From an uncultured Candidatus Saccharibacteria bacterium (GTDB lineage: Bacteria > Patescibacteriota > Minisyncoccia > Phycocordibacterales > WO2-35-19), in contig CAYTTP010000002.1 of assembly GCA_964440955.1 (NCBI GenBank), forward strand, positions 18,372 through 82,371: a stretch of DNA of 64,000 nt. Reading direction: 5' to 3'. Of the stretch, positions 5,956-57,736 are shown piece by piece. Both the position numbers and the translations under genes were made by a program. Below the pieces are notes generated by a model that had not been told where the DNA came from, did no database searches, and was given only the letters and a program-made list of their open reading frames with translations. How positions within the stretch are numbered: position 1 is the stretch's first letter; every line of letters begins with the position of its first letter.

Positions 5956-6768
5956 ATGACAACTAAAAACCAAAAACCAAAAAAGAGTTTGGGACAAAAT
6001 TTTTTGAGAGATCCAAAAATCTTAAAAAAAATAGTAGCAATAGCAAATCTAAATAAAGAAGATGTGGTGCTTGAAGTAGGGCCAGGAGAGGGGCTAATGA
6101 CTCAGATGCTTTTGGATAGAGTGGGCAAGGTGATCGCGGTCGAAAAAGACAGCGATATGGTGTCGTTGTTGAGAGAAAAATTTAAAAATGAAATAATTTC
6201 TGGCCGGCTTGAGGTTGTTGAGGCCGACATCCTTAAATTTAAAATTGAAAATTTAAAATTGAAAATTATTGGAAACATTCCTTACTACATCACTGGCGCT
6301 ATCTTGCGCCATACATTTGAAACCGAGAAATTACCAACCTCGATCACCTTCGTCGTTCAAAAAGAGGTAGCGGAGAGAGTGGTAGCAAAAGACGGCAAAG
6401 AAAGCGTTTTGAGTATTTCGGTCAAAGCTTACGGCACACCGCATTTTGGCGGAGTGATCAAGGCTGGAAGCTTTTTCCCCGCACCAAAAATTGATTCTGC
6501 TATTTTACACATCTCCGACATTTCCAGGAAAAATTTTGAACAATGTTCAGAGGAAAACTTTTTCAAAATTTTGAAATTTGGATTTGCACATAAGAGAAAA
6601 ATTCTTTTAAAAAACCTTTCCGAAAGCTTCAAAATAAAAAGTGACGACTTGAGAAAAATATTTGCCGAATTAAAAATAGACGAAAAAGCGAGGGCAGAGG
6701 AAATTTCGGTCGAATCATGGAAAAAACTTGCCTCTAAAATTTTTTTAAATGGTATAATGATTGAGTGA
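5956..6768 (+). CDS. rsmA: 16S rRNA (adenine1518/1519-N6)-dimethyltransferase
   Basis: KSLGQNFL...EVGPGEGLMT SAM-binding motif, IGNIPYYIT. Confidence 0.85.
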   Translation: MTTKNQKPKKSLGQNFLRDPKILKKIVAIANLNKEDVVLEVGPGEGLMTQMLLDRVGKVIAVEKDSDMVSLLREKFKNEIISGRLEVVEADILKFKIENLKLKIIGNIPYYITGAILRHTFETEKLPTSITFVVQKEVAERVVAKDGKESVLSISVKAYGTPHFGGVIKAGSFFPAPKIDSAILHISDISRKNFEQCSEENFFKILKFGFAHKRKILLKNLSESFKIKSDDLRKIFAELKIDEKARAEEISVESWKKLASKIFLNGIMIE

Positions 6769-7613
6769 ATTTTTTACCGAGTAAAAAAATTTTGAGTTTG
6801 CTTGTCATTATTATCGCGTTTGTCGCTTCGATCATGCTCGCTTTTGGTCGAGGCACCAAACAAGTCATAAACGCGACCACTGCCCTAATACCAGGAGAGA
6901 AGATAGGTTTGCCCGAAAATCCAGGTTGGCAGGAAGACATAGAGCTATTGCAGTATAAAAGCAATTCTTCGACCACCGCTTCCACTTTTGAAGAAGAACC
7001 GACCACTTTAACCGACAGTCTCTCCCAAAGCCTCATTTCAAACTACTTGAGTATGAAGCAAAGTGGCACTTTGGATGCCGACAACGCCACCAACCTTATA
7101 GATCAGAGCCTTGAATATATTGCAAATAGTGCACCAGTTTCTCAAATTTCAAACCTTAATCTTAGCTCTAAAAACGACGTAGCAGCCATGAAGCAATACG
7201 GGGAAGACCTTGGTAAAGTACTCAAATCAAATCGGCCAAAAAACCCAAAAAACGAGCTTGAAATATTGACTGCAATCGCCACCAACAAAGACCAAAGCAA
7301 AATAAAGGAATTGGAGGAGGTAAACATGGTATATAGAAATATCTTGATAGATTTGTCTCTGATAAAAGTCCCCAAGCTGTTCGCTACCTCTCACCTAGAT
7401 ATGATAACCGGACTAAACCAAGTGAGTTCAGCCATTTCGGACATGCAAATCGTGTTAAACGACCCTATTAAGGGGGTGGTTGCCCTTGAAACCTACAAAA
7501 ATGGTTCTTATTTGTTTGCCACTCCACTTCAAGCCACTATCGCGTATCTCAAGAAAAACAATGTCGTTTATGAACAAGGTAGTGGTGGTTATTATCTACT
7601 CCACGGCTTATAA
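6765..7613 (+). CDS. Hypothetical bitopic membrane protein; first gene of the T4SS-like cluster
   Basis: Single N-terminal TM helix followed by a Ser/Thr-rich extracellular region; start overlaps the rsmA stop. Confidence 0.35.
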   Translation: MNFLPSKKILSLLVIIIAFVASIMLAFGRGTKQVINATTALIPGEKIGLPENPGWQEDIELLQYKSNSSTTASTFEEEPTTLTDSLSQSLISNYLSMKQSGTLDADNATNLIDQSLEYIANSAPVSQISNLNLSSKNDVAAMKQYGEDLGKVLKSNRPKNPKNELEILTAIATNKDQSKIKELEEVNMVYRNILIDLSLIKVPKLFATSHLDMITGLNQVSSAISDMQIVLNDPIKGVVALETYKNGSYLFATPLQATIAYLKKNNVVYEQGSGGYYLLHGL

Positions 7614-9788: not shown

Positions 9789-12044
9789 ATGAATAAAAAA
9801 TTATCAACATTATTTTTTGTCGCGATCCTGGCACTGACTTTTGTGCCTAATTTTGCTTTTGCTATAACCGAAGCCGAATGTAAAGCCAAAGGCTCAAACT
9901 ATTTCTTCACGCCAGAACTTAGAATTAGCGAGTCGGAAGTAGTGCCAGCCAACTGTACAGAGAGGACTCAAGAAGTAAGAGATAGGGGGAACCAGGTAAT
10001 GAGTGAAATGCAATCAAACGGCAGCAATCTTTTGGGTGTAATGTTTGAGCCATTGTTCAAAGGCATAGGGCAACTACTCATGACTCTTTCATCACTCGTC
10101 CTCCTTACAGTAGGGAAGCTTTTTGATTTGAGTATTACCTACACGATCATTGATATGGCAAAAAACCTAGGGCCAGACGGTATCGGCAAGGCTATCGAAG
10201 GAGCTTGGGCAACCCTAAGAGATTTGGCCAATATATTTTTTATCTTCATACTTATATATGCCGCCTTTAAGGCAATGTTTGACCTAAATCCAACTAGCAT
10301 AGGTGGCACAGTCAAAAATATAATCATAGTCGCCCTGCTTATAAACTTCAGTCTCTTTTTGTCAAAAGTGGTTATTGATGCTTCCAATGTAGTGGCAATT
10401 GGGTTTTATAAATCAATCAGTGTTCAAGAAACATATAATTTAAATTCGGGAACCATTGACGATGATGGAAATATCCTCCCCCGACCAACTGAAGTGACAG
10501 GTATAACCGGTGGTTATATGAACCTGCTTGGGATGAATGGTTGGTTTTCATCAAAAATCCTTGATACCAATGTCAGAGCCTCTACCGCAATGGCGCTTGG
10601 TGTCATGAGTTCGATATTCATGATTGTGACAGCAGTTGTTTTTGGCATCACCGCTTTTATGTTGATCGCTCGCTACATCATTCTTATATTTTTGCTCGTA
10701 CTCTCTCCGCTTGCTGCTATTTCATATATGATCCCCGGACAAAGCTCGTATTTTGATAAGTGGTGGAAAATGCTTCTAAACCAAGCCCTCTTTGCTCCAG
10801 TTTTCTTTGCTATGACCTGGGTCGTATTTAAAGTGGCCGGACATCCAAAATTTTTGGGCTCACTATCAGACAAAATATCAGGAAAAGTTTTTGTTGAAAC
10901 AATAACAAACGGTGCCGATACTGGGGTCGCTGCCATTGTTTTAAACTTTGTTTTGATCACCGGCTTCTCAGTCGCTGCGCTTATAGTATCAAAGAGTATT
11001 GCCTCAAAGACCGAAGGTTTCAACGCCATCACTGCCGGCGCGGCTGGAGCAGTTTTTGGAGGCAGTGCTCTTGCAATGAGAAATACCGTCGGCAGAGCTT
11101 CGTCACTTGTTAGTGACAAATATAGGGATAGGTTGGAAAAATCCGCCATCGGCAGAAGTACACTTTGGCTTGCCAATAAAGGTAAGGGAGCAAGCTTCGA
11201 TACTCGTGGTATTGACCTAGGTAAAGTACCTGGAGTTGGTGGGTATATCAAAAAAGAAGCTGACATCCTAGGCAAGGCAGGTGGTGCTGGTGGCTTTGCT
11301 AAAGCAGTCAAAACAAAAGCAGAAGCTAAGGAAAAATACGCTAAGGAGGTTTATGGTCAAAGTGAAAATGAAAAAGATGAGATTAAGAAAATCAAAAAAG
11401 ATAAAAATTTGACAGACAAGATAAATCTAGACCGCGAGATTGCAGAAACTAAAACAGCAACCGAAGCAAAAGAAAAGGAAGAGAAGAGAAAGAAATATGC
11501 TGATACAATACTTGGAGAATACAATACTAGATTGGCAGAACTAAATAAAGAGAGAGTAGTTAAACAGAGAGAAGTGAGTGCAGAGAAAGATGAAGACAGA
11601 AAGAAAGTATTAACCACAGAGTTAAGTAATATCTTGGCTAGTATCAACCTTGAAAAAGAGGGGAGAAAAGAAAAGGAGAAGGATATGGAAAATAATGATG
11701 CAACATACAAAGACTTGAAAGAAAAGGCTGATGAAGCTAAAGAGGCCGCCAAAAAAGCAAAGGAACAGAGAAATAAAAAGGAATACGATGATAGTGAATA
11801 TGGCGAGAGATTGAAGGATATAAAGGATAGAGCCAAGAAGCGCCAAGGAATGTATGCAGAAAGATTGAGAAAAATGCCATTTGTTGGTTGGACACAAGGT
11901 AGTGAAGCGGCGGCAAGAAAAGTTGAAGCTCTCACAGAAGAGAAGTCGAAAAGTCAAAAAGCGGCTGACCTTTTAACTGAATTTGCAAAAGATGCCACAC
12001 CTACTCCACCCCCACCGACACCTCCAACCACCCCAACAACATAA
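9789..12044 (+). CDS. TrbL/VirB6-like polytopic membrane protein with a long Lys/Glu-rich coiled-coil tail and a PT-rich C-terminus
   Basis: Signal peptide, then about 6-7 TM helices over some 350 aa, then about 270 aa of KEKE-type low complexity ending PTPPPPTPPTTPTT. It sits next to the VirB4-like gene. Confidence 0.5.
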   Translation: MNKKLSTLFFVAILALTFVPNFAFAITEAECKAKGSNYFFTPELRISESEVVPANCTERTQEVRDRGNQVMSEMQSNGSNLLGVMFEPLFKGIGQLLMTLSSLVLLTVGKLFDLSITYTIIDMAKNLGPDGIGKAIEGAWATLRDLANIFFIFILIYAAFKAMFDLNPTSIGGTVKNIIIVALLINFSLFLSKVVIDASNVVAIGFYKSISVQETYNLNSGTIDDDGNILPRPTEVTGITGGYMNLLGMNGWFSSKILDTNVRASTAMALGVMSSIFMIVTAVVFGITAFMLIARYIILIFLLVLSPLAAISYMIPGQSSYFDKWWKMLLNQALFAPVFFAMTWVVFKVAGHPKFLGSLSDKISGKVFVETITNGADTGVAAIVLNFVLITGFSVAALIVSKSIASKTEGFNAITAGAAGAVFGGSALAMRNTVGRASSLVSDKYRDRLEKSAIGRSTLWLANKGKGASFDTRGIDLGKVPGVGGYIKKEADILGKAGGAGGFAKAVKTKAEAKEKYAKEVYGQSENEKDEIKKIKKDKNLTDKINLDREIAETKTATEAKEKEEKRKKYADTILGEYNTRLAELNKERVVKQREVSAEKDEDRKKVLTTELSNILASINLEKEGRKEKEKDMENNDATYKDLKEKADEAKEAAKKAKEQRNKKEYDDSEYGERLKDIKDRAKKRQGMYAERLRKMPFVGWTQGSEAAARKVEALTEEKSKSQKAADLLTEFAKDATPTPPPPTPPTTPTT

Positions 12045-14192: not shown

Positions 14193-15989
14193 ATGTTTGA
14201 TTTTTTCAAGAAAAAAGAAAACAAAAAATTGACCAATGTCTCGGTTTTACCGACCACTATCACCGAGAGTGCCGAGCTCGAATTGCGCGATATTTTGGCG
14301 CCCTCAGCCCTAAAGGTTAACGCCAAAGAACTAAACTTGGGTGAAAAGTTAGTGCGTAGCTTCTTCGTCATTTCATACCCACGCTTTCTTTCTGAGGATT
14401 GGTTTTCACCGATTATCAATATGGATAAAATGTTCGATGTCTCTATTTTTATTCACCCGCTTGAAACAGCCAAAGTTCTTCGCACTTTCCAAAAAAAAGT
14501 AGCCGAAGTTCAAAGCCAAATCCGTACTCGGGAAGAAAAGGGGTTGGTACGCGACCCAGTACTCGACACTGCCTACCAAGACCTTGAGAACTTGCGTGAC
14601 GACCTCCAACAGGCGCAGGAAAAAATGTTTGAGGTTGGCCTTTATGTCTCTGTTTATGCAACCACAAGCGAAGAACTCGATAAGGTAGAGTCCGAAATAA
14701 AGTCAATGATGGAGTCGAAACTCGTCTACATCAAACCGGCCCTGTTTCAACAAGAACAGGGTTTTCGCAGCATCTTACCGATCGCCAAAGACGACCTATC
14801 GGTTCACTCTAAAATAAATTCGTCACCACTTTCAAGCGTTTTCCCATTCATTTCCTTTGACCTTACCTCCGACAAAGGTATCCTCTACGGAATAAACCGA
14901 CACAATTCGTCTTTAGTTCTTTTTGATCGCTTCTCGCTAGAAAATTACAACTCAGTATGTCTCGCTAAATCAGGGTCAGGAAAGTCTTTTGCCACCAAAC
15001 TTGAAATATTGCGTACTCTCATGTTTGACGCAGAAGTAATAGTTATTGATCCAGAAAATGAATATGAATATATGGCGGAAGCGGTCGGTGGCCGATATTT
15101 CAACATCTCCCTCAACTCTGACCACCATATAAACCCATTTGAATTGCCAATACCAGGTGAAGACGAGTCAAGTGCAGCAGTTTTGAGAAGCCAAATAATA
15201 AACTTGGTTGGGTTGTTTCGTATCATGATGGGTGGGCTCACTCGCGAAGAAGACGCTATCATTGATCAAGCAATAACCGAAACCTATGCCTTGAAAGACA
15301 TCACGGCCGACTCCGATTTTAAAAATATTGAACCCCCTCTTTTATCTGACTTTGAGCTCGTGCTTGGTGGTATGGAAGGAGGAGCATCACTTGCTCAACG
15401 TATTTCAAAATATACCAGAGGTACTTGGGCAAACTTTATAAACAGGCCATCAAACATCGATATCAACAAACAATTCATTGTTTTTTCAATCCGAGACATG
15501 GAGGATGAGTTGAAGCCAGTCGCTATGTATATCGTAACCCACTATATATGGAACGCGATCCGTCGCGAACTCAAAAAACGCCTGCTTGTGATTGATGAGG
15601 CTTGGTGGATGATGAAGTCCGAGGATACCGCTTCGTTTTTGCTTTCACTCGCAAAACGCGGCCGAAAATACTATCTTGGACTCGCCACCATCACCCAAGA
15701 CGTTGACGACTTTTTGAAATCGCCTTATGGTACACCAATCATCAGCAACTCCTCGATCCAAATACTTCTAAAGCAGTCGCCAACTACCATCGACCGGCTT
15801 CAAGAAGTCTTCAACCTCACCGATGAGGAAAAATATTTGTTGCTCGAGTCGGGAGTAGGGGAGGGAATATTTTTTGCCGGACTCAAACATGTGGCGATCA
15901 AAATAATCGCTTCTTACACCGAAAGCCAAATTATCACTTCCGATCCTTCCCAAATACTTGCCATCAAGCAAATGAAAAATAAGTTATAA
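14193..15989 (+). CDS. virB4: VirB4/TraC/TrbE-family type IV secretion ATPase
   Basis: Walker A CLAKSGSGKSFATK; Walker B LLVIDEAWWMM; LGLATITQD motif. Confidence 0.8.
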   Translation: MFDFFKKKENKKLTNVSVLPTTITESAELELRDILAPSALKVNAKELNLGEKLVRSFFVISYPRFLSEDWFSPIINMDKMFDVSIFIHPLETAKVLRTFQKKVAEVQSQIRTREEKGLVRDPVLDTAYQDLENLRDDLQQAQEKMFEVGLYVSVYATTSEELDKVESEIKSMMESKLVYIKPALFQQEQGFRSILPIAKDDLSVHSKINSSPLSSVFPFISFDLTSDKGILYGINRHNSSLVLFDRFSLENYNSVCLAKSGSGKSFATKLEILRTLMFDAEVIVIDPENEYEYMAEAVGGRYFNISLNSDHHINPFELPIPGEDESSAAVLRSQIINLVGLFRIMMGGLTREEDAIIDQAITETYALKDITADSDFKNIEPPLLSDFELVLGGMEGGASLAQRISKYTRGTWANFINRPSNIDINKQFIVFSIRDMEDELKPVAMYIVTHYIWNAIRRELKKRLLVIDEAWWMMKSEDTASFLLSLAKRGRKYYLGLATITQDVDDFLKSPYGTPIISNSSIQILLKQSPTTIDRLQEVFNLTDEEKYLLLESGVGEGIFFAGLKHVAIKIIASYTESQIITSDPSQILAIKQMKNKL

Positions 15990-29397: not shown

Positions 29398-31074
29398 TTA
29401 TTCAAGATCGATAACTCGGCCAAGTTCGTCAAGGGAAGTGAGACCGCGGCAAACTTTGAGCACACCATCTTGTTGCATATTTAAAAGGTTTTGACTCTCG
29501 GCGGCTTTGTTTATTTCTCGTTCGCTTGGGTTTTGGATAACAGCTTTTTCGATTTGTTCATCAGTGAGTATCGCTTCATAAATACCTGTTCGCCCTTTGA
29601 AACCTGTGAAGTTACACTCCTGACATCCTACCGCTTCGGAAATATTTTTTTCATCGAGACCGTTTAAATAGCTTTTGTCTTTGATGCTATCAAGTGTTTT
29701 GTGGATTATTTGCATTTCGTTTTCTGAGAGTGTGGCCTTTTTTTTGCAAACGCTACAAAGGGTGCGTACAAGCCTTTGGGCCATCGCAATGTTGATTGCC
29801 GAAGTTATCACCTTCGGGTTTACTCCAAGATCAATAAGTCGGGGAAAGGTGCCAGCTGCATTGTTGGTGTGTAAGGTGGAGAATACAAGGTGGCCAGTAA
29901 GTGCAGCATTTACTGCAATTTCTGCCGTTTCGTTGTCGCGGATTTCACCAACCATGATCACGTCAGGGTCCTGGCGTAGAGCACTTCGCAGACCTTCCAA
30001 AAAAGTGTAGCCTTTTTCGTCGTCGGTTTGGGTTTGGACTACCCCCTTTAGGTGGTATTCGATAGGGTTTTCGATGGTTATTATTTTTATTTCTGGTGTG
30101 TGAATTTTTTTGAGGAAGGCGTAGAGGGTGGTGGTTTTACCGCTACCAGTAGGACCGGTGTTTAAGATCATACCATTTGGCTTTTTGAGTTCGTGAGTCA
30201 AGATCTCGAGGAGTTTTTTGTCGATTCCCAAAGCTTCGAGTTCTACACTGATTGCAAGTGGGTTTAAAACACGCAATACCACTGATTCGCCATAACCACC
30301 GGGCAATAATGAGGTACGCACCTCTATCTCGCCGTCGGAAAGGCGAATACTAAAGCGACCGTCTTGAGCCTTGTCTTTTACATTTAATTTAACGTTTGAA
30401 ATTAGTTTGATACGGGAGAGGAGGAGAGTGAAGGTTTCCTTATCTATTTCCAAAATATCATTCAATACTCCATCCAATCGGTAGCGCAAGCGAACTGACT
30501 TTTCTTCTGGTTCGAGGTGGATGTCGGAAGCACCGACTGAAATAGCGCCAGCCAATATTATTTCTAAAATGCGCGAAATACGATAGCTCTTTTTTTGGAT
30601 GAGCACTGTCTCAATTGATTTTTTTATATCATCGGTCGTTTTAACTGTTTTGATCAATTCTTGGATTTCTTCGTTTTCGATATCGAGCGCACCACCTTTG
30701 GTTTCCATTGAATAGGACAAATCCTTATAGCGACCCCAGATTTTTTGGAGGCTTTGATGTGAAGCCATATAGAGAGTAGGAACATAGCCCCTGTCTTTAA
30801 GTGATTCGATGAGTTGGATCGTTTTGCTGTTATTGGGAGAGATGATAGCGAGCGATATTTTTTTGTTTATGATATTGAAAGAAGCTACTTCCGCTTCACG
30901 GGCCTCTTGCTCACGAATAACTCTTAAAGCATCAATGTTAACCGGTGTTACCCCAAGGTCTATATATTGAAGTCCGTATTTTTGGGACATCGCTTTCGCG
31001 AGTCCTTCCTCTTCGGCCTCAGCCAAATCGGAGAGTTTTTGTCTTTGCTTGTCTTCGTCGAAGTGAATTACCAT
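29398..31074 (-). CDS. pilB: Type IV pilus assembly ATPase PilB / GspE family
   Basis: N-terminal GSPII_E_N-like domain; Walker A GPTGSGKTTTL; Asp and His boxes. The start is reassigned to MVIHFDE at 31074; the ORF-track extension to 31161 runs through an intergenic palindrome. Confidence 0.85.
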   Translation of the reverse strand: MVIHFDEDKQRQKLSDLAEAEEEGLAKAMSQKYGLQYIDLGVTPVNIDALRVIREQEAREAEVASFNIINKKISLAIISPNNSKTIQLIESLKDRGYVPTLYMASHQSLQKIWGRYKDLSYSMETKGGALDIENEEIQELIKTVKTTDDIKKSIETVLIQKKSYRISRILEIILAGAISVGASDIHLEPEEKSVRLRYRLDGVLNDILEIDKETFTLLLSRIKLISNVKLNVKDKAQDGRFSIRLSDGEIEVRTSLLPGGYGESVVLRVLNPLAISVELEALGIDKKLLEILTHELKKPNGMILNTGPTGSGKTTTLYAFLKKIHTPEIKIITIENPIEYHLKGVVQTQTDDEKGYTFLEGLRSALRQDPDVIMVGEIRDNETAEIAVNAALTGHLVFSTLHTNNAAGTFPRLIDLGVNPKVITSAINIAMAQRLVRTLCSVCKKKATLSENEMQIIHKTLDSIKDKSYLNGLDEKNISEAVGCQECNFTGFKGRTGIYEAILTDEQIEKAVIQNPSEREINKAAESQNLLNMQQDGVLKVCRGLTSLDELGRVIDLE

Positions 31075-31115
31075 AAAAATATTATAGCATGACCTATTTT
31101 CTCCTATGCAGACCT

Positions 31116-31152
31116 TACCCCCCAGCCCCTCTCCTAGAATTAGGAGAGGGGA
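31116..31152. repeat. GC-palindrome family copy A (ACCCCCCAGCCCCTCTCCTAGAATTAGGAGAGGGGAG)
   Basis: Seen directly; shares a leader with copy D and a 23-nt core with copy B. Confidence 0.6.
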
Positions 31153-31160
31153 GTCAGACA

Positions 31161-31189
31161 TTGCTTTTTTATATAAATAATGTATAATG
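31161..31189 (+). promoter_or_regulatory. Promoter TTGCTT-17-TATAAT upstream of the GC-rich lipoprotein gene
   Basis: Spacing counted base by base; followed by the GGAGG ribosome-binding site at 31202 and the ATG at 31216. Confidence 0.45.
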
Positions 31190-41473: not shown

Positions 41474-42103
41474 CTAATGGTTGTGCTGTTCCTGACGGAA
41501 GAGATGTCTTTCCTCAAGTGTTGTTCCTTTGGCTAGGCGAAGGAGTTCGCCGTTGCCGAAGTGGAAAATATTCAGCACTTCTCTCCACCTAATGTTGTAA
41601 TAGGCGCCGTATAGAGCCTTGCCCATGTCCCCGTGGGTTACAAGCAAGATCTTGTGGTTCGGCCCTTGGTGTAGGTGTTCGAGGAGTTGGATGACCCGTC
41701 GCGCTCTTTCCCAGAGTTGAAAGAATGTTTCTACCCCAGGACCAGATAGGAAATACGTGATCGTGCCGGTCTTGATGGTGTATGGTGCGCAAAGCTTCTC
41801 GATCTCACTGACTTTTTCCCCGGCCATGTACCCAAAGTCACGCTCGATGAGCGAGTGTAGGATTATCGGATCTCCGTTGTTTACACCCAACCAATCGCAG
41901 ATTGTGCTTGTGGTCGAGCGTGCTCTGACTAGTGGCGAAGTGTACACTGCATCAAACTGAATTCCAGCATCCTCGATCTTTTGAGCGAGCCTTTCAGCTT
42001 GTTGCTCACCAAGATCGGTCAGATCCTCATCGCGATGGCCGTTTAGAATACCTTCTTCGTTGTCCTTGTCTTGTCCGTGTCGGACTACGTAGATTTCTAA
42101 CAA
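41474..42103 (-). CDS. Histidine phosphatase (phosphoglycerate mutase superfamily); comparatively GC-rich gene
   Basis: RHG motif (VVRHGQDKDN), SPLVRARST, and a late conserved histidine in VTHG. Confidence 0.75.
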   Translation of the reverse strand: MLEIYVVRHGQDKDNEEGILNGHRDEDLTDLGEQQAERLAQKIEDAGIQFDAVYTSPLVRARSTTSTICDWLGVNNGDPIILHSLIERDFGYMAGEKVSEIEKLCAPYTIKTGTITYFLSGPGVETFFQLWERARRVIQLLEHLHQGPNHKILLVTHGDMGKALYGAYYNIRWREVLNIFHFGNGELLRLAKGTTLEERHLFRQEQHNH

Positions 42104-42202: not shown

Positions 42203-42274
42203 GCTCCCGTCGTTCAATGGATAGGACGTATCCTTGCGGAGGATATGATGTAGGTTCGATTCCTGCCGGGAGCA
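42203..42274 (+). tRNA. tRNA-Arg; my anticodon-loop parse gives GCG
   Basis: Acceptor GCTCCCG/CGGGAGC; its D-loop and T-arm closely match the two other Arg tRNAs in the window; anticodon loop TTGCGGA. Confidence 0.65.
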
Positions 42275-42871: not shown

Positions 42872-43345
42872 CTACCGAGAAATGAGTTTATCAAACCATT
42901 CGTGGATGATGGATTCGCGCAAATAACCTTCTTCCAAAAATTGAAGCATGGTCTCGCGCAGGTCATCAAGGTTGACTTCTTCGTTTATATGAACAATAAC
43001 GAGAGGCAAAAAAGTGTTTTTTGGGTTTAGTAGGATGCGTGAGCCATGAATATGGTCATCTTCGATCCAAAAATATTGGTAGGAGCTCCATGGGTAGAGG
43101 TATTTGTCGAGCACTATCCCTGCTTGAGTGACGCGGACCTCGATGGTTCGTGTTTCTTTGTATGAAAGAATAGAAAGGGTGATACCACCAACGATGACAA
43201 GTATTCCGAACAAAAAGTTGCCGAAATAAAACGAGAGTACTGCGATCGCAAGAGCGATAATGCCAAGCGCCCAATACCAGTCCTTACTCTTTTTTTCAAA
43301 ATGATGTTCGGGTGAGGTCCACTCGATCAAGGTTTCTTCTCGCAT
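42872..43345 (-). CDS. Hypothetical membrane protein (two TM helices plus a cytoplasmic domain)
   Basis: Hydrophobic hairpin WALGIIALAIAVLSFYFGNFLFGILVIVGG. Confidence 0.4.
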   Translation of the reverse strand: MREETLIEWTSPEHHFEKKSKDWYWALGIIALAIAVLSFYFGNFLFGILVIVGGITLSILSYKETRTIEVRVTQAGIVLDKYLYPWSSYQYFWIEDDHIHGSRILLNPKNTFLPLVIVHINEEVNLDDLRETMLQFLEEGYLRESIIHEWFDKLISR

Positions 43346-43450: not shown

Positions 43451-43813
43451 TTACTTTACAAGAGTGCCTGGAAGTACTGCGTTGTCTAATTTCAAAAGTG
43501 AAAAGAAATTGTCTCCCGAAACCGCCATGATCATACCTTGGCTTTCGAGACCCATCATTTGTCTTGGTTCGAGGTTTGTTACAAAAGCGCAAGTTGTACC
43601 AACCAATTCTTCAGGGTTTATGTGTTTGGCGATGCCAGAGAGTATTTGTCTTGGTTGTCTTCCTTCGACCGTCGAAGCGTCAGCGAAGGCGGTGCCAAAA
43701 TCAACCACAAGCTTTAGTAACTTGTCAGAACCTTCTATTTTTTCTGCGCTCAAAATCTTGCCGGCGCGGATTTCTACTTTTTTAAAATCATCTATTGAAA
43801 TTGTGTTTTCCAT
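43451..43813 (-). CDS. tRNA-binding domain protein (CsaA / Myf / EMAP-II-like OB fold)
   Basis: FKKVEIRAGKIL...VVDFG...ILSGI motif resembles the MetRS C-terminal tRNA-binding domain. Confidence 0.65.
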   Translation of the reverse strand: MENTISIDDFKKVEIRAGKILSAEKIEGSDKLLKLVVDFGTAFADASTVEGRQPRQILSGIAKHINPEELVGTTCAFVTNLEPRQMMGLESQGMIMAVSGDNFFSLLKLDNAVLPGTLVK

Positions 43814-43815
43814 AT

Positions 43816-44181
43816 TTATTTTCCTGTGGTTAATTCTTCTCCTTCATAAATGTCTTTGGTCGCTATCCAGCAAATTTCGGTGTCACCTGGCAAAACTTGA
43901 GTATTGTCTATGTTTGGTTTTTTGGAACTGTTTATAAATCTTGAATTGTCGATTGAACAAATATAGGAGTTGGTACGAGGGGAGATGTACCCGCCGTCTC
44001 GAACCATTTCCCTCTGAACTTCCGGAAAGCTCTCGACCTGCTTTGGGTCGAAAAACATATCAAATCGCGGGTCAAACCGCCACACCACCGTTTTGGCCGG
44101 TATGTATTGCATAGCTAACAACCCAACACCAGTCAGCTTGTTTCTCCTGCTGTATCTTACTTTTGTTTTGACTAGTAGCAT
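43816..44181 (-). CDS. Minimal SET-domain-like protein (putative lysine methyltransferase), about 121 aa
   Basis: GVGLLA (GxG motif), RFINSSKKPN (compare RFINHS..PN) and a GEELT C-terminal motif; resembles 119-aa viral/bacterial mini-SET proteins. Confidence 0.4.
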   Translation of the reverse strand: MLLVKTKVRYSRRNKLTGVGLLAMQYIPAKTVVWRFDPRFDMFFDPKQVESFPEVQREMVRDGGYISPRTNSYICSIDNSRFINSSKKPNIDNTQVLPGDTEICWIATKDIYEGEELTTGK

Positions 44182-44187
44182 GATAAA

Positions 44188-45249
44188 TTATTGCGCTTTT
44201 TTTATATTTACAACATTGGCTCTATTGAAAACCTGACTGTCCATATATGTATAATAGTAAATATCGATTTCTACAAATACCTTATCTAAATTTTTAAATC
44301 CCAATTTTTTAATATTCTCTGTATTTTCTATTCCAAACCAAACCATTCTGCTATCACTACTAAGATAGGGTAATTGTTTTAGAGAATCATTAGTTAAATA
44401 CCGTATTGAGTATTCTGGTCCAAACCCTTCTTCCTTTAGGTCCCTGATGTATAAGGTTCCCGTTAGTTTGGCTGTTCCTTTAAATTCTATTCCTACCTTT
44501 GCTTCAGAAATTGGGTAATAAATTTTGTCTACTACCATAGCTCCAACTTTTTGACCTATCTCGATATTTTCATGACTAAAGATATTTGGAGTTAATCCTA
44601 GTGATTCTGTAGCGTCATGTTGGATGTTTATATAAAGACCCCCATTTACTGCATCTCTCGTACCAATACTCAAAATTAAAGAATTATTATCTTTTTGATA
44701 AAGAAAATCTTGGTAAAAACCAGGCTCTCTAGGTTTTGCTGTCAATATCCAATTATTATCAGCTAACCAATTTTTGATTAGGGTAACAACGTTGCTATGT
44801 TCTCTGCGGGCAATTTCTACATCATTTTTATATTCAAGGTCTTCAGAATTAAATGATTTGCTGAATAGCATTACAATATCGTTTGGTTTTGGCAGTCTTT
44901 CTGTTTCTATGGTTTGTATAAATTTCCAACCGCTATAACTCCCATCAAACTTCCATTGAATCAGTTTTTCGATTTCAGATATGTCGCTATTTATTTTATC
45001 AAAATTATTAAGGGTCAATTCAATTTCTTTTTCGTTCACGGTCGATTTCATAAAGTCACCATCTTTCTTGGGGTAGGATGGCATAAGATGATCTAATATC
45101 TTGTCACCAAAAAAAAGAATGATTCCTGTGATGGTCAAAATAACTCCAATCAAAATTATCAATTTTTTTGATTTTTTAGGAGGTTGGGGTTGTAGAGTGG
45201 CTTCACCGAACTGTGTGGTTTTAATATTTAGGAGATTATTGTCGTCCAT
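44188..45249 (-). CDS. Hypothetical membrane-anchored protein
   Basis: N-terminal TM helix followed by a 300-aa domain. Confidence 0.4.
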   Translation of the reverse strand: MDDNNLLNIKTTQFGEATLQPQPPKKSKKLIILIGVILTITGIILFFGDKILDHLMPSYPKKDGDFMKSTVNEKEIELTLNNFDKINSDISEIEKLIQWKFDGSYSGWKFIQTIETERLPKPNDIVMLFSKSFNSEDLEYKNDVEIARREHSNVVTLIKNWLADNNWILTAKPREPGFYQDFLYQKDNNSLILSIGTRDAVNGGLYINIQHDATESLGLTPNIFSHENIEIGQKVGAMVVDKIYYPISEAKVGIEFKGTAKLTGTLYIRDLKEEGFGPEYSIRYLTNDSLKQLPYLSSDSRMVWFGIENTENIKKLGFKNLDKVFVEIDIYYYTYMDSQVFNRANVVNIKKAQ

Positions 45250-47737: not shown

Positions 47738-50700
47738 ATGAAAGAAGAGGAAAAAAACATAGCGGCCAAGGAAGAAGAAGTCCTGAAATTTTGGAAGGAG
47801 AATAAAATCTTTGAAAAATCACTCACCAAATCCTCTCCCAAGGGTAACTTCGTTTTTTATGAAGGTCCACCGACCGCTAACGCGAAACCTGCTCTTCACC
47901 ACCTTGAAGCTCGGGCCTTTAAAGACGTGATCCCTCGCTATAAAACTATGAGAGGGTTCCATGTTCCCAGAAAAGGTGGTTGGGATACGCATGGCCTTCC
48001 GGTAGAACTTCAAATAGAAAAGAAGCTTGGTCTTACTTCAAAAAAAGACATAGAGCAATATGGTGTTGAAGCTTTCAATCGCGCCTGCAAAGAGAGCGTT
48101 TTTGAATATATAGGTGAATGGGAAAAATTTACTGATCGCATTGCATATTGGGTTGATAAAAAAAATGCTTACTACACCTTCAACTCTTCTTTTATGGAGA
48201 CCGAATGGAATATTATAAAAAAAGTGTATGAAGACGATCTTCTCTACAAAGATTATCGGGTGGTGCCGTGGTGTACTCGCTGTGGGACAGCGCTCTCCTC
48301 TCATGAATTGGCTCAAGGCTACGAAGATGTAAAAGATCTTTCTGTTTATGTGAAATTTAAGGTTAAACAAGGTCAGAAGATAAAAGATTCTGTTGTTGAA
48401 GACAATACATATATATTGGCATGGACGACAACCCCATGGACTCTTCCGGGTAATGTCGGATTAGCAGTGGGGGAGGAGATTGAATATTTAAAATTAAAAA
48501 TTACCAACCAAGGAGGCGGAATTGGAAATTCTTCAGAAATCTTAATAATTGCCAAGGAGAGGGTGTCAGTAATAACTGCAGAGTATTCTGTCCTCGATGA
48601 AATAAAAGGAAAAGACTTGATTGGTCTTGAATATGAGCCACTTTACCCGTATTTGAAAGACAAGTTTGAAAGTAAAGATCCAGAAAGTTTTGAAAGAGCT
48701 TATAAGGTGTACGGGGCGGATTTTGTAACTACTACCGATGGTACAGGTATTGTTCATACTGCCGTTATGTATGGTCAGGAAGATTTTGAACTTGGCACAA
48801 AGGTGGGGCTTCCAAAATTTCATCTTGTTTCTGACGATGGCAAGTTTGTTAGCGATACTGGTTTTTTGGAAGGCAGGTTTGTCAAAGAAAAAGACGAAAA
48901 CGGAAAGCCTACACTCGCAGTTGATATCATTGATGATTTAAAGAAAAGAAACCTGTTTCTCAATCAAGAAAATATAAAACATACTTACCCTCACTGTTGG
49001 AGGTGTAAGACTCCTCTTATATATTACGCGCGCGACTCTTGGTATATTCGTATGTCAAAGCTTCGCGATGAACTCCAAAAAGAAAATGAAAAAATAAACT
49101 GGGTACCCTCTCATATTCGTGCCGGCCGTTTTGGGGAATGGCTTCGGGAAGTGAAAGATTGGGCAATTTCTCGTGAAAGATATTGGGGTACGCCATTGCC
49201 AGTGTGGCTATCAAAAAATGGAGAAATGAAAGTAATTGGAAGTGTCGAGGAACTAAAAAAATACACTAAAAAATCTGGCAATCAATATTTCGTCATGCGT
49301 CACGGCGAAGCGAGAAACAATGCACTTAACATACCAGACAGGGAGGGTGACCCTGAAAATCATTTGACCGAAAAGGGGGAGAAAGAAGTTTTGGAAACCT
49401 GTGATGATTTGAAGACTAAAAAGATAGACCTAATCATCACCTCGCCGTTTTTGAGGACGAGAGAGACAGTGGCGATCATAAAGAGAGAGCTCGGCCTTAA
49501 GGAAGAAAATATAGTTGAAGATACGAGAATATTTGAAATACAGCCAAACGAAAGTTATTTGGAGGTACGAAAGCGGATGGGCGAATTTATTTTTGATATC
49601 GAGTCAAGATACCAAAACAAAAATATTTTGATTGTAAGTCATGGTTTGCCAATCTGGTCGCTTTTGGAAGTGGTAAATATGCGGAAGGTTGATGATGGTG
49701 ACACTCCTTACGATTTGAAAACAGGCGAAGTGAAAGGATTTTCGTTTTCTCTATTTCCAAAAAATGAAAAATACGAGCTTGATTTGCATAAGCCATATAT
49801 TGATGAAATTGAACTTTTTGACGAGGGGGGCGAAAAGCTAACTCGCACAAAGGAGGTGATGGATGTTTGGTTTGACTCTGGTGCCATGCCTTTTGCTCAA
49901 GATGGTTTAACTCTACAAGATAAAGTCTTGTATCCAGCCGACTATATTTCTGAAGCGATCGATCAGACTCGTGGTTGGTTTTATACTCTCCATGCGATTG
50001 GAGTATTGATGGGGCGAGGACACGCTTATAAAAACGTTGTCTGCTTAGGGCATATTCTTGATGCAGAGGGTAAAAAAATGTCCAAGTCGGTCGGTAATAT
50101 CATAGATCCAGTTGTCGCGATAAACACGTATGGCGCTGACGCTTTGCGTATGTGGATGTATACAGTCAACCAACCGGGGGATTCAAAAAACTTTGACCCG
50201 AAAACGGTTGATGAACTGATAAAAAAGATTTTCAATCCTATTGAAAATGTCATTTCTTTTTATGAAATGTACGCTGACTCTTCTATACAACCCCATGATC
50301 GAAGCAGTGATTTGTTAGACAAATGGATAATAGCAGTCTTCAAAAAAATGTCCGCTCAGGGTACCGAATATTTGGATAACTTTAAAATTTTTGAAGCAGC
50401 GAGATTGGTGCGCGACTTTGTCAATGATTTTTCTACATGGTACATACGTCGTTCGAGAGAAAGGTTTAAATCAGAAGATTTGACTGATAAAAACAACGCG
50501 CTTAGCACTACCGCTTTTGTTTTGCGCGAATTGTCGAAATATATGGCGCCATTCATGCCGTTTTTTGCTGAGAGTATTTATTTGAAATTCAGAGCAAATG
50601 AAGAGCCGGAGAGTGTGCATTTGACCGGATGGCCTTTTGAAGATGATGGAATATTGAAAAATATTTTCGATTCGTTCAAGCATGAAAAAAATATCATTGA

Positions 50701-51193
50701 AGACATGGAAGAAGTGCGACGCATAGTGTCGCTCGCTCTTGAAAAGCGTATGGCTGCAAATATAAAAGTAAGGCAACCGTTGACTAAATTAAAAATAAAA
50801 AATTCAAGATTGAATAATTCGGACCCAGCTTTTTTGGATTTGATCAAGGATGAAATAAATATCAAAGAAGTTGTTTTTGATGAAAGTATTGCCGAAGATG
50901 TAGAGCTTGACCAAACCATCACTCCGGAGTTGAAAAAGGAGGGGGAGGTGCGGGAGATTATCAGGATGATACAAGACTTGCGTAAAGAAAATGAACTAAC
51001 ACCTGACCAAAAAATAACTCTAAGGGTCGAAGCAGGAAAAGAAAAAATAGAGCTGTTTAGAGAGTTTGAAAGCACAATTTCCAAACCAACCAACATTTCG
51101 CATTTTGAGTTTATTGATAGAGAAGGTGGGGCAGATGTCGCAAGGGAAGTTGATTTGGATAGACTGGTTTTGTCCATAATTCATACTTCTTAA
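47738..51193 (+). CDS. ileS: Isoleucyl-tRNA synthetase carrying an in-frame inserted histidine-phosphatase (PGAM-family) domain
   Basis: HIGH-like motif (PPTANAKPALHH), KMSKS, and WCTRCGT zinc motif. Between GTPLPVW (about aa 484) and VWFDSG (about aa 714) lies a roughly 150-aa module with RHG (FVMRHGEARNN), SPFLRTRET and IVSHG motifs. Confidence 0.9.
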   Translation: MKEEEKNIAAKEEEVLKFWKENKIFEKSLTKSSPKGNFVFYEGPPTANAKPALHHLEARAFKDVIPRYKTMRGFHVPRKGGWDTHGLPVELQIEKKLGLTSKKDIEQYGVEAFNRACKESVFEYIGEWEKFTDRIAYWVDKKNAYYTFNSSFMETEWNIIKKVYEDDLLYKDYRVVPWCTRCGTALSSHELAQGYEDVKDLSVYVKFKVKQGQKIKDSVVEDNTYILAWTTTPWTLPGNVGLAVGEEIEYLKLKITNQGGGIGNSSEILIIAKERVSVITAEYSVLDEIKGKDLIGLEYEPLYPYLKDKFESKDPESFERAYKVYGADFVTTTDGTGIVHTAVMYGQEDFELGTKVGLPKFHLVSDDGKFVSDTGFLEGRFVKEKDENGKPTLAVDIIDDLKKRNLFLNQENIKHTYPHCWRCKTPLIYYARDSWYIRMSKLRDELQKENEKINWVPSHIRAGRFGEWLREVKDWAISRERYWGTPLPVWLSKNGEMKVIGSVEELKKYTKKSGNQYFVMRHGEARNNALNIPDREGDPENHLTEKGEKEVLETCDDLKTKKIDLIITSPFLRTRETVAIIKRELGLKEENIVEDTRIFEIQPNESYLEVRKRMGEFIFDIESRYQNKNILIVSHGLPIWSLLEVVNMRKVDDGDTPYDLKTGEVKGFSFSLFPKNEKYELDLHKPYIDEIELFDEGGEKLTRTKEVMDVWFDSGAMPFAQDGLTLQDKVLYPADYISEAIDQTRGWFYTLHAIGVLMGRGHAYKNVVCLGHILDAEGKKMSKSVGNIIDPVVAINTYGADALRMWMYTVNQPGDSKNFDPKTVDELIKKIFNPIENVISFYEMYADSSIQPHDRSSDLLDKWIIAVFKKMSAQGTEYLDNFKIFEAARLVRDFVNDFSTWYIRRSRERFKSEDLTDKNNALSTTAFVLRELSKYMAPFMPFFAESIYLKFRANEEPESVHLTGWPFEDDGILKNIFDSFKHEKNIIEDMEEVRRIVSLALEKRMAANIKVRQPLTKLKIKNSRLNNSDPAFLDLIKDEINIKEVVFDESIAEDVELDQTITPELKKEGEVREIIRMIQDLRKENELTPDQKITLRVEAGKEKIELFREFESTISKPTNISHFEFIDREGGADVAREVDLDRLVLSIIHTS

Positions 51194-56287: not shown

Positions 56288-57736
56288 ATGAAAGATAAGA
56301 CTTTTTATATTACAACGACTATTCCTTATGTGAATGCCGATCCGCACATGGGTTTTGCTCTCGAGCTTGTGCAGTCGGACGCAATCGCTCGGTATCACCG
56401 ACTCAAAGGTGAGGAGGTGTTTTTTAATACCGGTACTGACGAGCATGGACAAAAAATTTGGGAAGCAAGCCAAAAAGAAGGGCAGGAGGTACAGGCTTAT
56501 GTCGACCGTTATGCAGCCAATTATTTTAACCTGACCAAAACCCTCAATCTTTCTAATGATAATTTTATTCGTACTACCGACGAGGCTCATATAAAAGCAG
56601 CCCAAGAAATGTGGCGCATTTGCGAAGCGAAGGGGGATATATATAAAAAGAAGTATAGGGGGTTGTATTGTGTCGGGTGTGAAAAATTTCTAATCGAGCG
56701 CGATTTGGTAGATGGAAAGTGTATTTTGCACCCAACCAAGGAGCCAGAAGTGGTGGAGGAAGAAAATTACTTTTTCAAACTGACCAACTACCGAGACCAA
56801 CTTCTTGACTACCTTTCAAACGAAAACTCTATTGCTCCAGATTGGCGTCGTAAGGAGGCAATTGAATATGTGAAAGAGGGTATGGAAGATTTCTCGATTT
56901 CTCGAAGTAAAGAAAGATTTTCGTGGGGAGTGCCGGTACCGTGTGATGAGAGTCAGGTGATGTATGTGTGGTTTGACGCGCTTGTAAATTATATTTCAAC
57001 TCTTGGGTGGCCACACGAGAAAGAAAAATTTGAAAAATTTTGGCAAGGCGGTTTTCACATGCAAACCGCTGGCAAAGATATGGTCAAGTTTCAGTCAGTG
57101 ATGTGGCAGGGGATGCTCCTCTCGGCCGGGCTTACACCAACAAGCACAGTGGTTTATCACGGGTTCATCACGGCCGAAGGTGGGGTCCGTATGTCGAAGT
57201 CATTGGGCAATGGGGTAAATCCGGTTGACATAGCCAGTGAATATGGAACCGATGCTTTACGTTACTTTTTATTGCGCGAAGTCTCAGTTTTTGAAGACAG
57301 TCCATTTACAATTGAGAGGTTTAAAGAAGCGTATAACGCCCATTTGGCTAATGGGTTGGGAAATTTGGTTTCGAGAGTTATGACTATGGCGGTTAAAAAT
57401 AATATAAAAATAAGAGAGTCAGATTCTGATCTGTTTAATTTTTTCAAACCTGGCTATATATCAGAATTTGTTGAAAAATTTGAGATAAATAAAGCAATGG
57501 ATTTGATTTGGGGAAAAATTGGCAAGGCAGATTCATTTATACAAACCAAGGAACCTTTTAAGAAGATAAAGAGTGACAAAGAATCTGCAACAAAAGATAT
57601 ACAGGAATTGCTCTGCGAATTAGCGGAAATATCAGTTTGTCTTAGGCCGTTTTTGCCACAAACTGCTAAAAAAATTGAAACATTAGTGAGAGAAAATAAA
57701 ATGTCAGAAGTTTCTCTATTTCCAAGAAAAGATTGA
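56288..57736 (+). CDS. metG: Methionyl-tRNA synthetase
   Basis: P.VNADPHMG (HIGH-like), KMSKS (RMSKSLGN), zinc knuckle CVGCEKF...CILHP. Confidence 0.9.
   Translation: MKDKTFYITTTIPYVNADPHMGFALELVQSDAIARYHRLKGEEVFFNTGTDEHGQKIWEASQKEGQEVQAYVDRYAANYFNLTKTLNLSNDNFIRTTDEAHIKAAQEMWRICEAKGDIYKKKYRGLYCVGCEKFLIERDLVDGKCILHPTKEPEVVEEENYFFKLTNYRDQLLDYLSNENSIAPDWRRKEAIEYVKEGMEDFSISRSKERFSWGVPVPCDESQVMYVWFDALVNYISTLGWPHEKEKFEKFWQGGFHMQTAGKDMVKFQSVMWQGMLLSAGLTPTSTVVYHGFITAEGGVRMSKSLGNGVNPVDIASEYGTDALRYFLLREVSVFEDSPFTIERFKEAYNAHLANGLGNLVSRVMTMAVKNNIKIRESDSDLFNFFKPGYISEFVEKFEINKAMDLIWGKIGKADSFIQTKEPFKKIKSDKESATKDIQELLCELAEISVCLRPFLPQTAKKIETLVRENKMSEVSLFPRKD

Follow-up and report, generated by a model that had tools for sequence, protein, structure and literature searches.

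Research on bacterial SET proteins has centred on secreted effectors that methylate the histones of a host, and we know of no substrate for the free-standing mini-SET family that occurs in environmental bacteria. The viral protein vSET of Paramecium bursaria chlorella virus 1, a 119-aa methyltransferase of lysine 27 of histone H3, retains NHS as well as the catalytic tyrosine that follows EEIT and is an active dimeric enzyme. Methylation of host histones is documented for NUE of Chlamydia, RomA/LegAS4 of Legionella and BaSET of Bacillus anthracis, and for the archaeal Go1-SET the methylated substrate is MC1-alpha, a chromatin protein (review PMC3980110). Here we examine a 64,000-nt stretch of DNA, hereafter the window, from an uncultured Candidatus Saccharibacteria bacterium (assembly GCA_964440955.1, contig CAYTTP010000002.1, positions 18,372 to 82,371), which carries a truncated mini-SET gene encoding 121 aa at 43816-44181 on the minus strand (all coordinates are those of the window unless a locus is named). 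What appears to be new here is a clade of a known bacterial mini-SET family that has lost the catalytic Tyr, the His of the NHS motif and the C-terminal tail, and that substitution patterns place under strong constraint.

The residues in question have been dissected in other SET enzymes. In yeast Set1, alanine at H1017 is tolerated and leucine or arginine gives a null phenotype, and both Y1054A, which affects the equivalent of the tyrosine lost here, and F1056A, two positions on, are null (PMC3585878). The corresponding H297 of SET7/9 is described as positioning the conserved tyrosine Y335, which forms the lysine access channel (PMC3585878). In MLL5, the NH and active-site motifs of the SET domain are degenerate, and intrinsic activity is absent (PMC5094779).

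The open reading frame (ORF) at 43816-44181(-) encodes a genuine SET-domain protein. Its product begins with MLLVKTKVRYSRRNKLTGVGLLA, continues through RFINSSKKPN and ends in GEELTTGK directly before the stop codon; the complete 121-aa translation is MLLVKTKVRYSRRNKLTGVGLLAMQYIPAKTVVWRFDPRFDMFFDPKQVESFPEVQREMVRDGGYISPRTNSYICSIDNSRFINSSKKPNIDNTQVLPGDTEICWIATKDIYEGEELTTGK. It matches the Pfam SET profile PF00856 with 38.9 bits (E 1.3e-9; gathering score 22.4 bits), residues 18-118 covering profile positions 1-101 of 105. An AlphaFold2 (AF2) model built with a 92-sequence alignment reached a mean predicted local distance difference test score (pLDDT) of 93.2 and a predicted template modelling (TM) score (pTM) of 0.82, with lower local pLDDT, about 76, at residues 11-20. 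Foldseek returned 329 PDB chains at E<=0.001, and all 50 of the 50 matches listed were SET-domain structures, led by vSET (3kma_A; E 4.9e-7; TM 0.67 normalised to the query and 0.76 to the target; 19% identity) and followed by SETD2, MLL1, NSD2, MLL3 and Schizosaccharomyces pombe Set7. A single-sequence search of the PDB gave marginal matches alone (E 0.25 to MLL1), and a profile search was needed: the family profile matched MLL4 (4z4p) with E 5.8e-11 and aligned its 'geEltidY' with 'GEELTYDY' of MLL4. Therefore, the conserved tyrosine of the family, which aligns with the last Y of ELTYDY, is the canonical SET tyrosine.

These results bear out most of what the first-pass annotation, made from the sequence alone, had said about this protein. 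Both ORFs that it described, the SET gene and the tRNA-binding gene next to it, exist as described, and the motifs GVGLLA, RFINSSKKPN and GEELT (followed by three residues and the stop) are all present. Its SET call is upheld by a PF00856 score above cut-off and far above chance, and its comparison with vSET in size and fold by the best Foldseek match and the confident AF2 model; the profile match and the SET beta-fold, whose absence it had named as refuting, were both obtained. It had also remarked that the usual catalytic Tyr may be missing; it is missing (the protein stops at ELTTGK), and this proved to be unusual even within the protein's own family.

The mini-SET family is widespread in bacteria and is made up of small SET proteins with a single domain. 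Searching with the single sequence brought up no more than seven close relatives; a profile raised the number to 471 proteins, and an exhaustive HMMER search of 1.84 billion representatives recovered 2757 at E<=1e-3 and 1369 at E<=1e-10, counted as representatives at 50% identity. The HMMER members are mostly 125-140 aa long (129-140 aa for canonical members), and their source names are 'SET domain-containing protein' or 'Nuclear protein SET [Parcubacteria group bacterium GW2011_GWA2_49_9]'. A genome scan with one genome per species, built on an 8-sequence alignment, located 71 family loci. Many lie in Patescibacteria, in metagenome-assembled genomes (MAGs) labelled Saccharibacteria, Nomurabacteria, Buchananbacteria, Magasanikiibacteriota, Vogelbacteria, Moranbacteria and Paceibacterota, and others lie outside the candidate phyla radiation (CPR), under the labels Hyphomicrobium, Rhodobacteraceae, Methylococcaceae, Myxococcota, Planctomycetota, Verrucomicrobia and Bacteroidota; a member is also present in two strains in culture, one of Actibacterium pelagium and one of Salegentibacter. 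In the literature we found no characterised member of the family, nothing joining a SET domain with Patescibacteria, and nothing relevant on Tyr105 of vSET. The ten longest members examined comprise tandem SET-SET proteins and one SET-GNAT protein. As a separate observation, SET genes of 129 aa and 174 aa at L005 865-2125 (also in L006 and L007) flank a 112-aa gene on the same strand that resembles small multidrug resistance proteins, and a second SET gene lies close to the first in L031, L037, L044 and L045 as well.

Within this family, the window protein belongs to a clade of seven intact members (the window protein, P0001-P0004, and the proteins of loci L011 and L012), to which a frameshifted copy in L001/L013/L002 is added. 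The six intact copies from other genomes share 76-87% identity with the window protein. Its nearest full-length relatives share 52-56% identity with it (family profile E values down to 1e-55) and have in common with it the fold, an N-terminus beginning MLLVKT, the GxG motif, W34, D41, D78, R81-F82, N84 and GEE.

Comparison of the seven intact clade members with 264 canonical members showed what the clade has lost. Of the canonical members, 98% have NHS or NHA after RF.N, N84 being present in 100% and H85 in 98%; in place of this Asn-His pair of the NHS/C motif, the window protein has N84-S85-S86 (43924-43932, minus strand), so that the Asn is kept and the His lost, and residue 85 across the clade is S, S, S, P, S, S and K. 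Similarly, GEE[LMI]T is followed by x[DN]Y in 98% of canonical members, and this Tyr, the invariant one of the ELxF/YDY motif, is absent from every clade member. The clade proteins end 1-9 residues past EELT in short, mutually unrelated tails (TGK, TQI, TSSINTKNT, TKL, I, TQL and TQI); in the window, the end reads E116-L-T-T-G-K followed by a TAA stop (43816-43836, minus strand), so that with three residues after ELT at most a stub could thread the pseudoknot loop formed by the motif RFINHSxxPN. By contrast, a canonical subgroup of Parcubacteria type continues after x[DN]Y with a conserved acidic tail, DxxDExSxEEYL, and AlphaFold modelling of P0010, a canonical relative (pLDDT 95.3), places tail residues 118-134 confidently as three short helices. 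Two further positions also differ, namely position 63, aromatic in 93% of canonical members and Gly in the clade, and position 30, Gly in 94% and Lys in the clade.

What the clade has kept includes the cofactor side. The GxG motif G18-V19-G20 (44122-44130, minus strand), on the cofactor side of the SET fold, is retained, with G18 present in 98% and G20 in 100% of canonical members and both invariant in the clade; also invariant in the clade are W34, D41, D78, R81, F82, N84, A107, D110, I111, G114 and E116. In addition, the clade has acquired features of its own. Position 13, Ile in 83% of canonical members, is Arg in all seven clade members, and positions 15-17, which are gaps in at least 97% of canonical members, are occupied by a three-residue insertion; together they make up a clade-specific basic segment, R13-N14-K15-L16-T17 in the window (44131-44145, minus strand) and S-R-R-N-K-x-T across the clade, directly before the GxG. 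Newly fixed across the clade are Y10, Y26, W105 and Y112.

By neighbour joining, the clade comes out as a monophyletic group with a long stem, sister to the canonical 135-aa group of Parcubacteria and nested among canonical lineages; it follows that the truncated state is derived and arose once. The tree topology thus indicates that the whole segment after EELT was lost in one ancestral event in the clade lineage. Scans of the window and the seven clade loci in six frames with regular expressions of the type [DN]Y..[IFV]D..D...YL yielded nothing relevant that could encode the tail separately. The family hidden Markov model, run on six-frame ORFs of the window, matched 43816-44181(-) alone and thus no second SET paralogue, and the clade MAGs have one SET locus each in the genome scan. 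We also considered fusion with, or recoding into, the downstream gene, and rejected it: a TAA stop and a 2-nt gap separate the two, what follows ELT varies from relative to relative, the downstream protein begins (ISIDDFKKVEIRAGK) in the ordinary way of its OB (oligonucleotide/oligosaccharide-binding) fold, and the adjacency is not conserved.

The clade genes are evidently constrained. In a Nei-Gojobori comparison of the seven intact genes, proportions of nonsynonymous differences (pN) were 0.04-0.12 and those of synonymous differences (pS) 0.50-0.96, most pairs being saturated at synonymous sites; for the one clearly unsaturated pair, L011/L012, dN/dS was 0.054. The SET protein is 76-87% identical to that of the window in genome pairs in which ribosomal protein S20 is 66-75%, the tRNA-binding protein 58-71%, RuvX 41-59%, RluA 61-62% and a 157-aa membrane protein 58-60% identical. 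This pattern indicates that the clade SET protein is under very strong purifying selection, following a burst of change. One lineage departs from it: the copy at L001 5830-6210 (= L013 6001-6381; L002 816-1196) is broken in the N-terminal half by two frameshifts, one of about -2 at TATA/CCAGCC and one of -1 in a run of T, and the gene called there is no more than a 69-aa C-terminal ORF. An NCBI MAG and an assembly of an independent read set (Logan; L002) show the same frameshifted sequence; therefore, the SET gene can be lost.

The window protein thus differs from each of the described SET types in its own way. Relative to the 129-140-aa bacterial mini-SET family to which it belongs, it lacks the His of NHS, the Tyr of x[DN]Y, the helical tail DxxDExSxEEYL, the aromatic residue at position 63 and Gly30, and it has the basic three-residue insertion and the long stem of its clade. 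It is comparable with vSET in size and in having no pre- or post-SET zinc modules, yet the two share only 19% identity and the window protein ends before the position of the catalytic tyrosine. The MLL/SET1, NSD and SETD2 enzymes provide the best PDB profile matches, the same fold and the ELT-x-D-Y register of the family; however, these enzymes are large, comprise several domains including post-SET regions and have partner subunits, and the window protein has no equivalents of Set1 H1017, Y1054 and F1056 (PMC3585878). The closest functional analogy may be to the inactive SET domains of the MLL5/SETD5 type and of several PRDM proteins, which have degenerate NH(S) and active-site motifs and still serve a biological function although they have no methyltransferase activity of their own (PMC5094779). 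The likeness to the MLL5 type would be convergence only, with no specific sequence relationship, and the losses differ: in MLL5 the Asn of the NH motif is gone, and in the window protein this Asn stays and His, Tyr and tail are missing.

Overall, we favour, with moderate confidence, the reading that this is a derived, tail-less mini-SET protein that acts as a binding module with a SET fold or needs a partner, and that its adjacency to a tRNA-binding gene is inherited synteny. The clade has kept the SET beta-fold and the residues of its cofactor side (GxG, the Asn of NHS, D78/R81/F82 and EE), and the Tyr and a structured tail of about 15 residues were deleted in its ancestor. The Tyr-positioning His would then have drifted; the second conserved aromatic residue, at position 63, was lost, the basic three-residue insertion was gained before the GxG, and very strong purifying selection set in after this burst of change. 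Since Tyr, tail, His and aromatic residue are gone and the cofactor-side motifs are fixed, the wall of the substrate-lysine channel would be missing and the channel dismantled; without that wall, the protein is, by analogy with other SET enzymes, most likely no longer a stand-alone canonical lysine methyltransferase. More probably, it would be a cytoplasmic SET-fold binding module, a pseudo-enzyme that may still bind S-adenosylmethionine (AdoMet); alternatively, a partner may complete its active site.

Several considerations weigh against this reading. The verdict of inactivity is carried over from other SET enzymes, the retained and highly constrained cofactor-side residues would also fit an enzyme that uses AdoMet, and the missing wall could be supplied in trans, as the vSET dimer and partner-completed SET enzymes suggest by analogy. 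The main rival reading, less likely but far from negligible, is that the protein is still an active lysine methyltransferase whose channel has been rebuilt by residues of the clade (W105, Y112, Y26 or the basic N-terminal insertion being the candidates), by homodimerisation as in vSET, or by a partner. The invariance of G18, G20, N84, R81 and F82, the fixation of Y10, Y26, W105 and Y112, and a selection so strong that identity exceeds that of neighbouring housekeeping genes would all be in keeping with an enzyme, as would the tolerance of a small residue at the His site of Set1, where H1017A is active (PMC3585878). By contrast, a Tyr conserved in 98% of the family is absent here, and Set1 with Y1054A or F1056A is null (PMC3585878); Y112 is no replacement, as it also occurs in canonical members that keep the Tyr (the P0007 group); the His position drifts (S/P/K), as expected of a part of the site no longer in use; and no ORF for the lost tail was found in the window or the clade loci. 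We consider it possible, though doubtful, that a lineage of Patescibacteria has remade a mini-SET lysine methyltransferase into a SET-fold protein of a new type, lacking Tyr and tail and conserved beyond the ribosomal and translation genes nearby, which works as a non-catalytic regulator that binds AdoMet or a peptide, or as a half-enzyme completed in trans by a partner that is possibly linked to translation.

The nearest candidate for such a link is the gene directly downstream, at 43451-43813 on the minus strand, which encodes a stand-alone tRNA-binding OB-fold protein of 120 aa. The first-pass annotation had labelled it as CsaA-type, a label that gives way to another assignment: the CsaA models score only 38-41 bits (TIGR02222 41.3 bits, cut-off 119.65; NF007496 38.4 bits, cut-off 171), whereas the NCBIfam model that fits best is TIGR00399 metG_C_term, for the C-terminal domain of methionyl-tRNA synthetase (MetRS), at 110.4 bits, slightly short of the cut-off (116.65). 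The protein also matches PF01588 tRNA_bind with 81.3 bits (cut-off 27) and aligns to positions 540-648 of the 648-position MetRS model NF008900. The window MetRS of 482 aa (56288-57736, plus strand) has no C-terminal tRNA-binding domain and covers positions 2-476 of the same 648-position model (492.7 bits), with 418.6 bits to TIGR00398 metG (cut-off 336); the domain gene thus lies 12.5 kb from the enzyme gene and on the opposite strand. Since the two genes cover complementary parts of the MetRS model, the neighbour is, judging from these profile matches, the detached appended domain of MetRS, of the Trbp111 or MetRS beta-subunit type, which is a known arrangement. It would resemble that type in its PF01588 OB-fold and in having the MetRS C-terminal domain as its best NCBIfam match, and differs in falling just under the TIGR00399 cut-off. 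If the SET protein is completed in trans, this adjacent domain could be its partner.

The close spacing of the two genes, to which the first-pass annotation had drawn attention, is real, with 2 nt between the TAA stop of the SET gene and the ATG of the tRNA-binding gene. In two close relatives, L011 and L012, the two genes are likewise directly adjacent, and the tRNA-binding gene, as aligned, begins either right at the end of the SET ORF or within it, as overlapping genes would. Beyond these three genomes the arrangement loosens: the order is SET-RuvX-tRNA_bind in L010, the two genes are 2.5 kb apart on opposite strands in L001/L013, and L003 and L009 have other neighbours and no tRNA_bind gene in the flank available. 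The order SET-RuvX-tRNA_bind recurs in L064 of Paceibacterota, whose distant, canonical SET protein shares 31% identity with that of the window, together with a DUF5652 gene, a Zn-ribbon protein gene and PilM shared with L012. In some 60 other loci of the family, no tRNA_bind gene lies within 6 kb. Clustering of 392 neighbour ORFs from 75 loci found no widely shared partner gene; tRNA_bind is the most frequent neighbour cluster, in 7 of the 75 loci, a figure pushed up by one ORF of L012 that is merged and one gene of L020 that is of CsaA type and sits 2 kb from SET. Because all linked cases lie in one conserved housekeeping block of S20, tRNA_bind, RuvX and RluA, the adjacency is best explained as inherited local synteny within that block and not as a dedicated two-gene system. 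The three genomes in which the genes overlap or nearly touch and the L064 neighbourhood count the other way, and a functional link keeps a small probability.

A functional pair, as the earlier annotation had implied, could mean, for example, that the SET protein binds or modifies the MetRS accessory domain, MetRS or another translation component, or that the SET and tRNA-binding proteins act jointly on tRNA. The 2-nt gap in the window and the abutting or overlapping genes of L011 and L012 would suit such a pair, as would the gene order shared by L010 and the distant L064, the rank of tRNA_bind among the neighbour clusters (inflated as it is), and the basic loop RRNK gained by the clade. We nevertheless consider it improbable: direct adjacency is confined to the window and two close relatives, the genes are separated on opposite strands in L001/L013 and other genes flank SET in L003 and L009, the roughly 60 loci of the wider family show no tRNA_bind gene within 6 kb, shared descent of the housekeeping block explains every linked case, and there is no SET-tRNA_bind fusion among the ten longest family members examined.

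Two observations on these relatives may be recorded separately. L064 104-3387, L012 3000-7200 and L010 have in common a neighbourhood of DUF5652, Zn-ribbon, SET, RuvX, tRNA_bind and PilM, although the L064 SET protein falls on a separate branch of the tree, so that positional conservation is at odds with sequence relatedness. In L012, a single 295-aa ORF at 6309-7196 (plus strand) combines a homologue of the tRNA-binding protein (aligned residues 3-101) with a homologue of the 157-aa membrane protein; it is either a tRNA-binding/membrane-protein fusion or an assembly artefact.

The host-directed or nucleoid-modifying role that the first-pass annotation had suggested, in which the protein would be a methyltransferase effector of an episymbiont, has precedent in the characterised bacterial SET proteins that methylate host histones and in Go1-SET acting on MC1-alpha (PMC3980110), and the genome is of a Patescibacteria type. 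It is nonetheless very improbable and did not hold up, since the catalytic Tyr and His are missing along with the tail, there is no signal peptide or other secretion signal (the N-terminus is strand 1 of the predicted fold), the family is spread over many non-CPR lineages, and no secretion system is linked to the gene at this locus or in relatives. That the gene is a decaying remnant, a pseudogene from a premature stop, is hardly credible, the selection analysis having in effect refuted it. In its favour, 98% of the family have a longer C-terminus and one clade member (L001/L013/L002) carries two frameshifts; yet seven intact copies with saturated synonymous sites show a pN of just 0.04-0.12, the clade does not vary in its core motifs, and the SET protein outranks ribosomal protein S20 in conservation in the same genomes.

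The clade may be regarded as a natural experiment, in which the SET fold has kept its cofactor side and lost its lysine-channel side and yet constraint is very high. An inactive protein would give a clear-cut case of a SET pseudo-enzyme in prokaryotes; an active one would show that a SET enzyme can do without the 'invariant' tyrosine and without the pseudoknot tail. Either outcome would refine the reading of SET annotations in CPR genomes, to which the label 'histone methyltransferase' has been transferred uncritically. The point is a modest one, at the level of the specialist, as the gene family, the fold and the Trbp111-like neighbour are all of known kinds and no new system is involved.

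With regard to the remaining neighbours, the SET and tRNA-binding genes lie between two ORFs on the same minus strand, a 353-aa ORF upstream (44188-45249), which ends 6 nt before the SET start codon, and a 157-aa ORF downstream (42872-43345), which is separated from the tRNA-binding gene by 105 nt. Both have been described as membrane proteins, in agreement with the hydrophobic transmembrane stretches that we find in them, one near the N-terminus of the 353-aa ORF, forming a membrane anchor, and two in the 157-aa ORF. The 353-aa ORF has no significant family match among Pfam and NCBIfam profiles and no tblastn match in the loci of relatives, and it is thus not a conserved neighbour. By contrast, homologues of the 157-aa ORF (58-60% identity) come after tRNA_bind in L001, L011 and L012. 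The sole minus-strand promoter-like site of this four-gene block is at 45314-45286, upstream of the 353-aa ORF, and no minus-strand terminator-like site was found within the block; co-transcription of the 353-aa ORF, SET and tRNA_bind is plausible and would probably occur. The nearby tRNA cluster noted earlier is also present, with tRNA genes at 42203, 45367, 46698 and 46773.

A second aminoacyl-tRNA synthetase of the window has an unusual architecture. The isoleucyl-tRNA synthetase (IleRS) of 1151 aa at 47738-51193 (plus strand; TIGR00392, 859 bits) contains an internal histidine-phosphatase domain (PF00300, 74.8 bits, residues ~517-700) between the first catalytic half and the part with KMSKS and anticodon binding. 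To our knowledge, this insertion has not been described. PF00133 and PF00300 occur together in at least 15 metagenomic protein clusters, most of them 200-370 aa long and possibly fragments, several of which are named 'isoleucyl-tRNA synthetase'; therefore, the insertion recurs. NCBIfam also holds an exception model for IleRS with a GNAT domain. In addition, a stand-alone 209-aa protein of the histidine-phosphatase family, the superfamily of the IleRS insert, is encoded at 41474-42103 (minus strand), about 1.3 kb from the SET/tRNA_bind pair, with its best matches, all below cut-off, to alpha-ribazole phosphatase and dPGM-type models.

Elsewhere in the window, a 751-aa ORF without a Pfam match (9789-12044, plus strand) lies near a TraG-like P-loop ATPase (14193-15989, plus strand; PF19044, 104.8 bits), and a T2SSE/PilB-type ATPase is encoded at 29398-31161. 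These three genes may belong to a gene set for conjugation- or type IV-like secretion or for a pilus.

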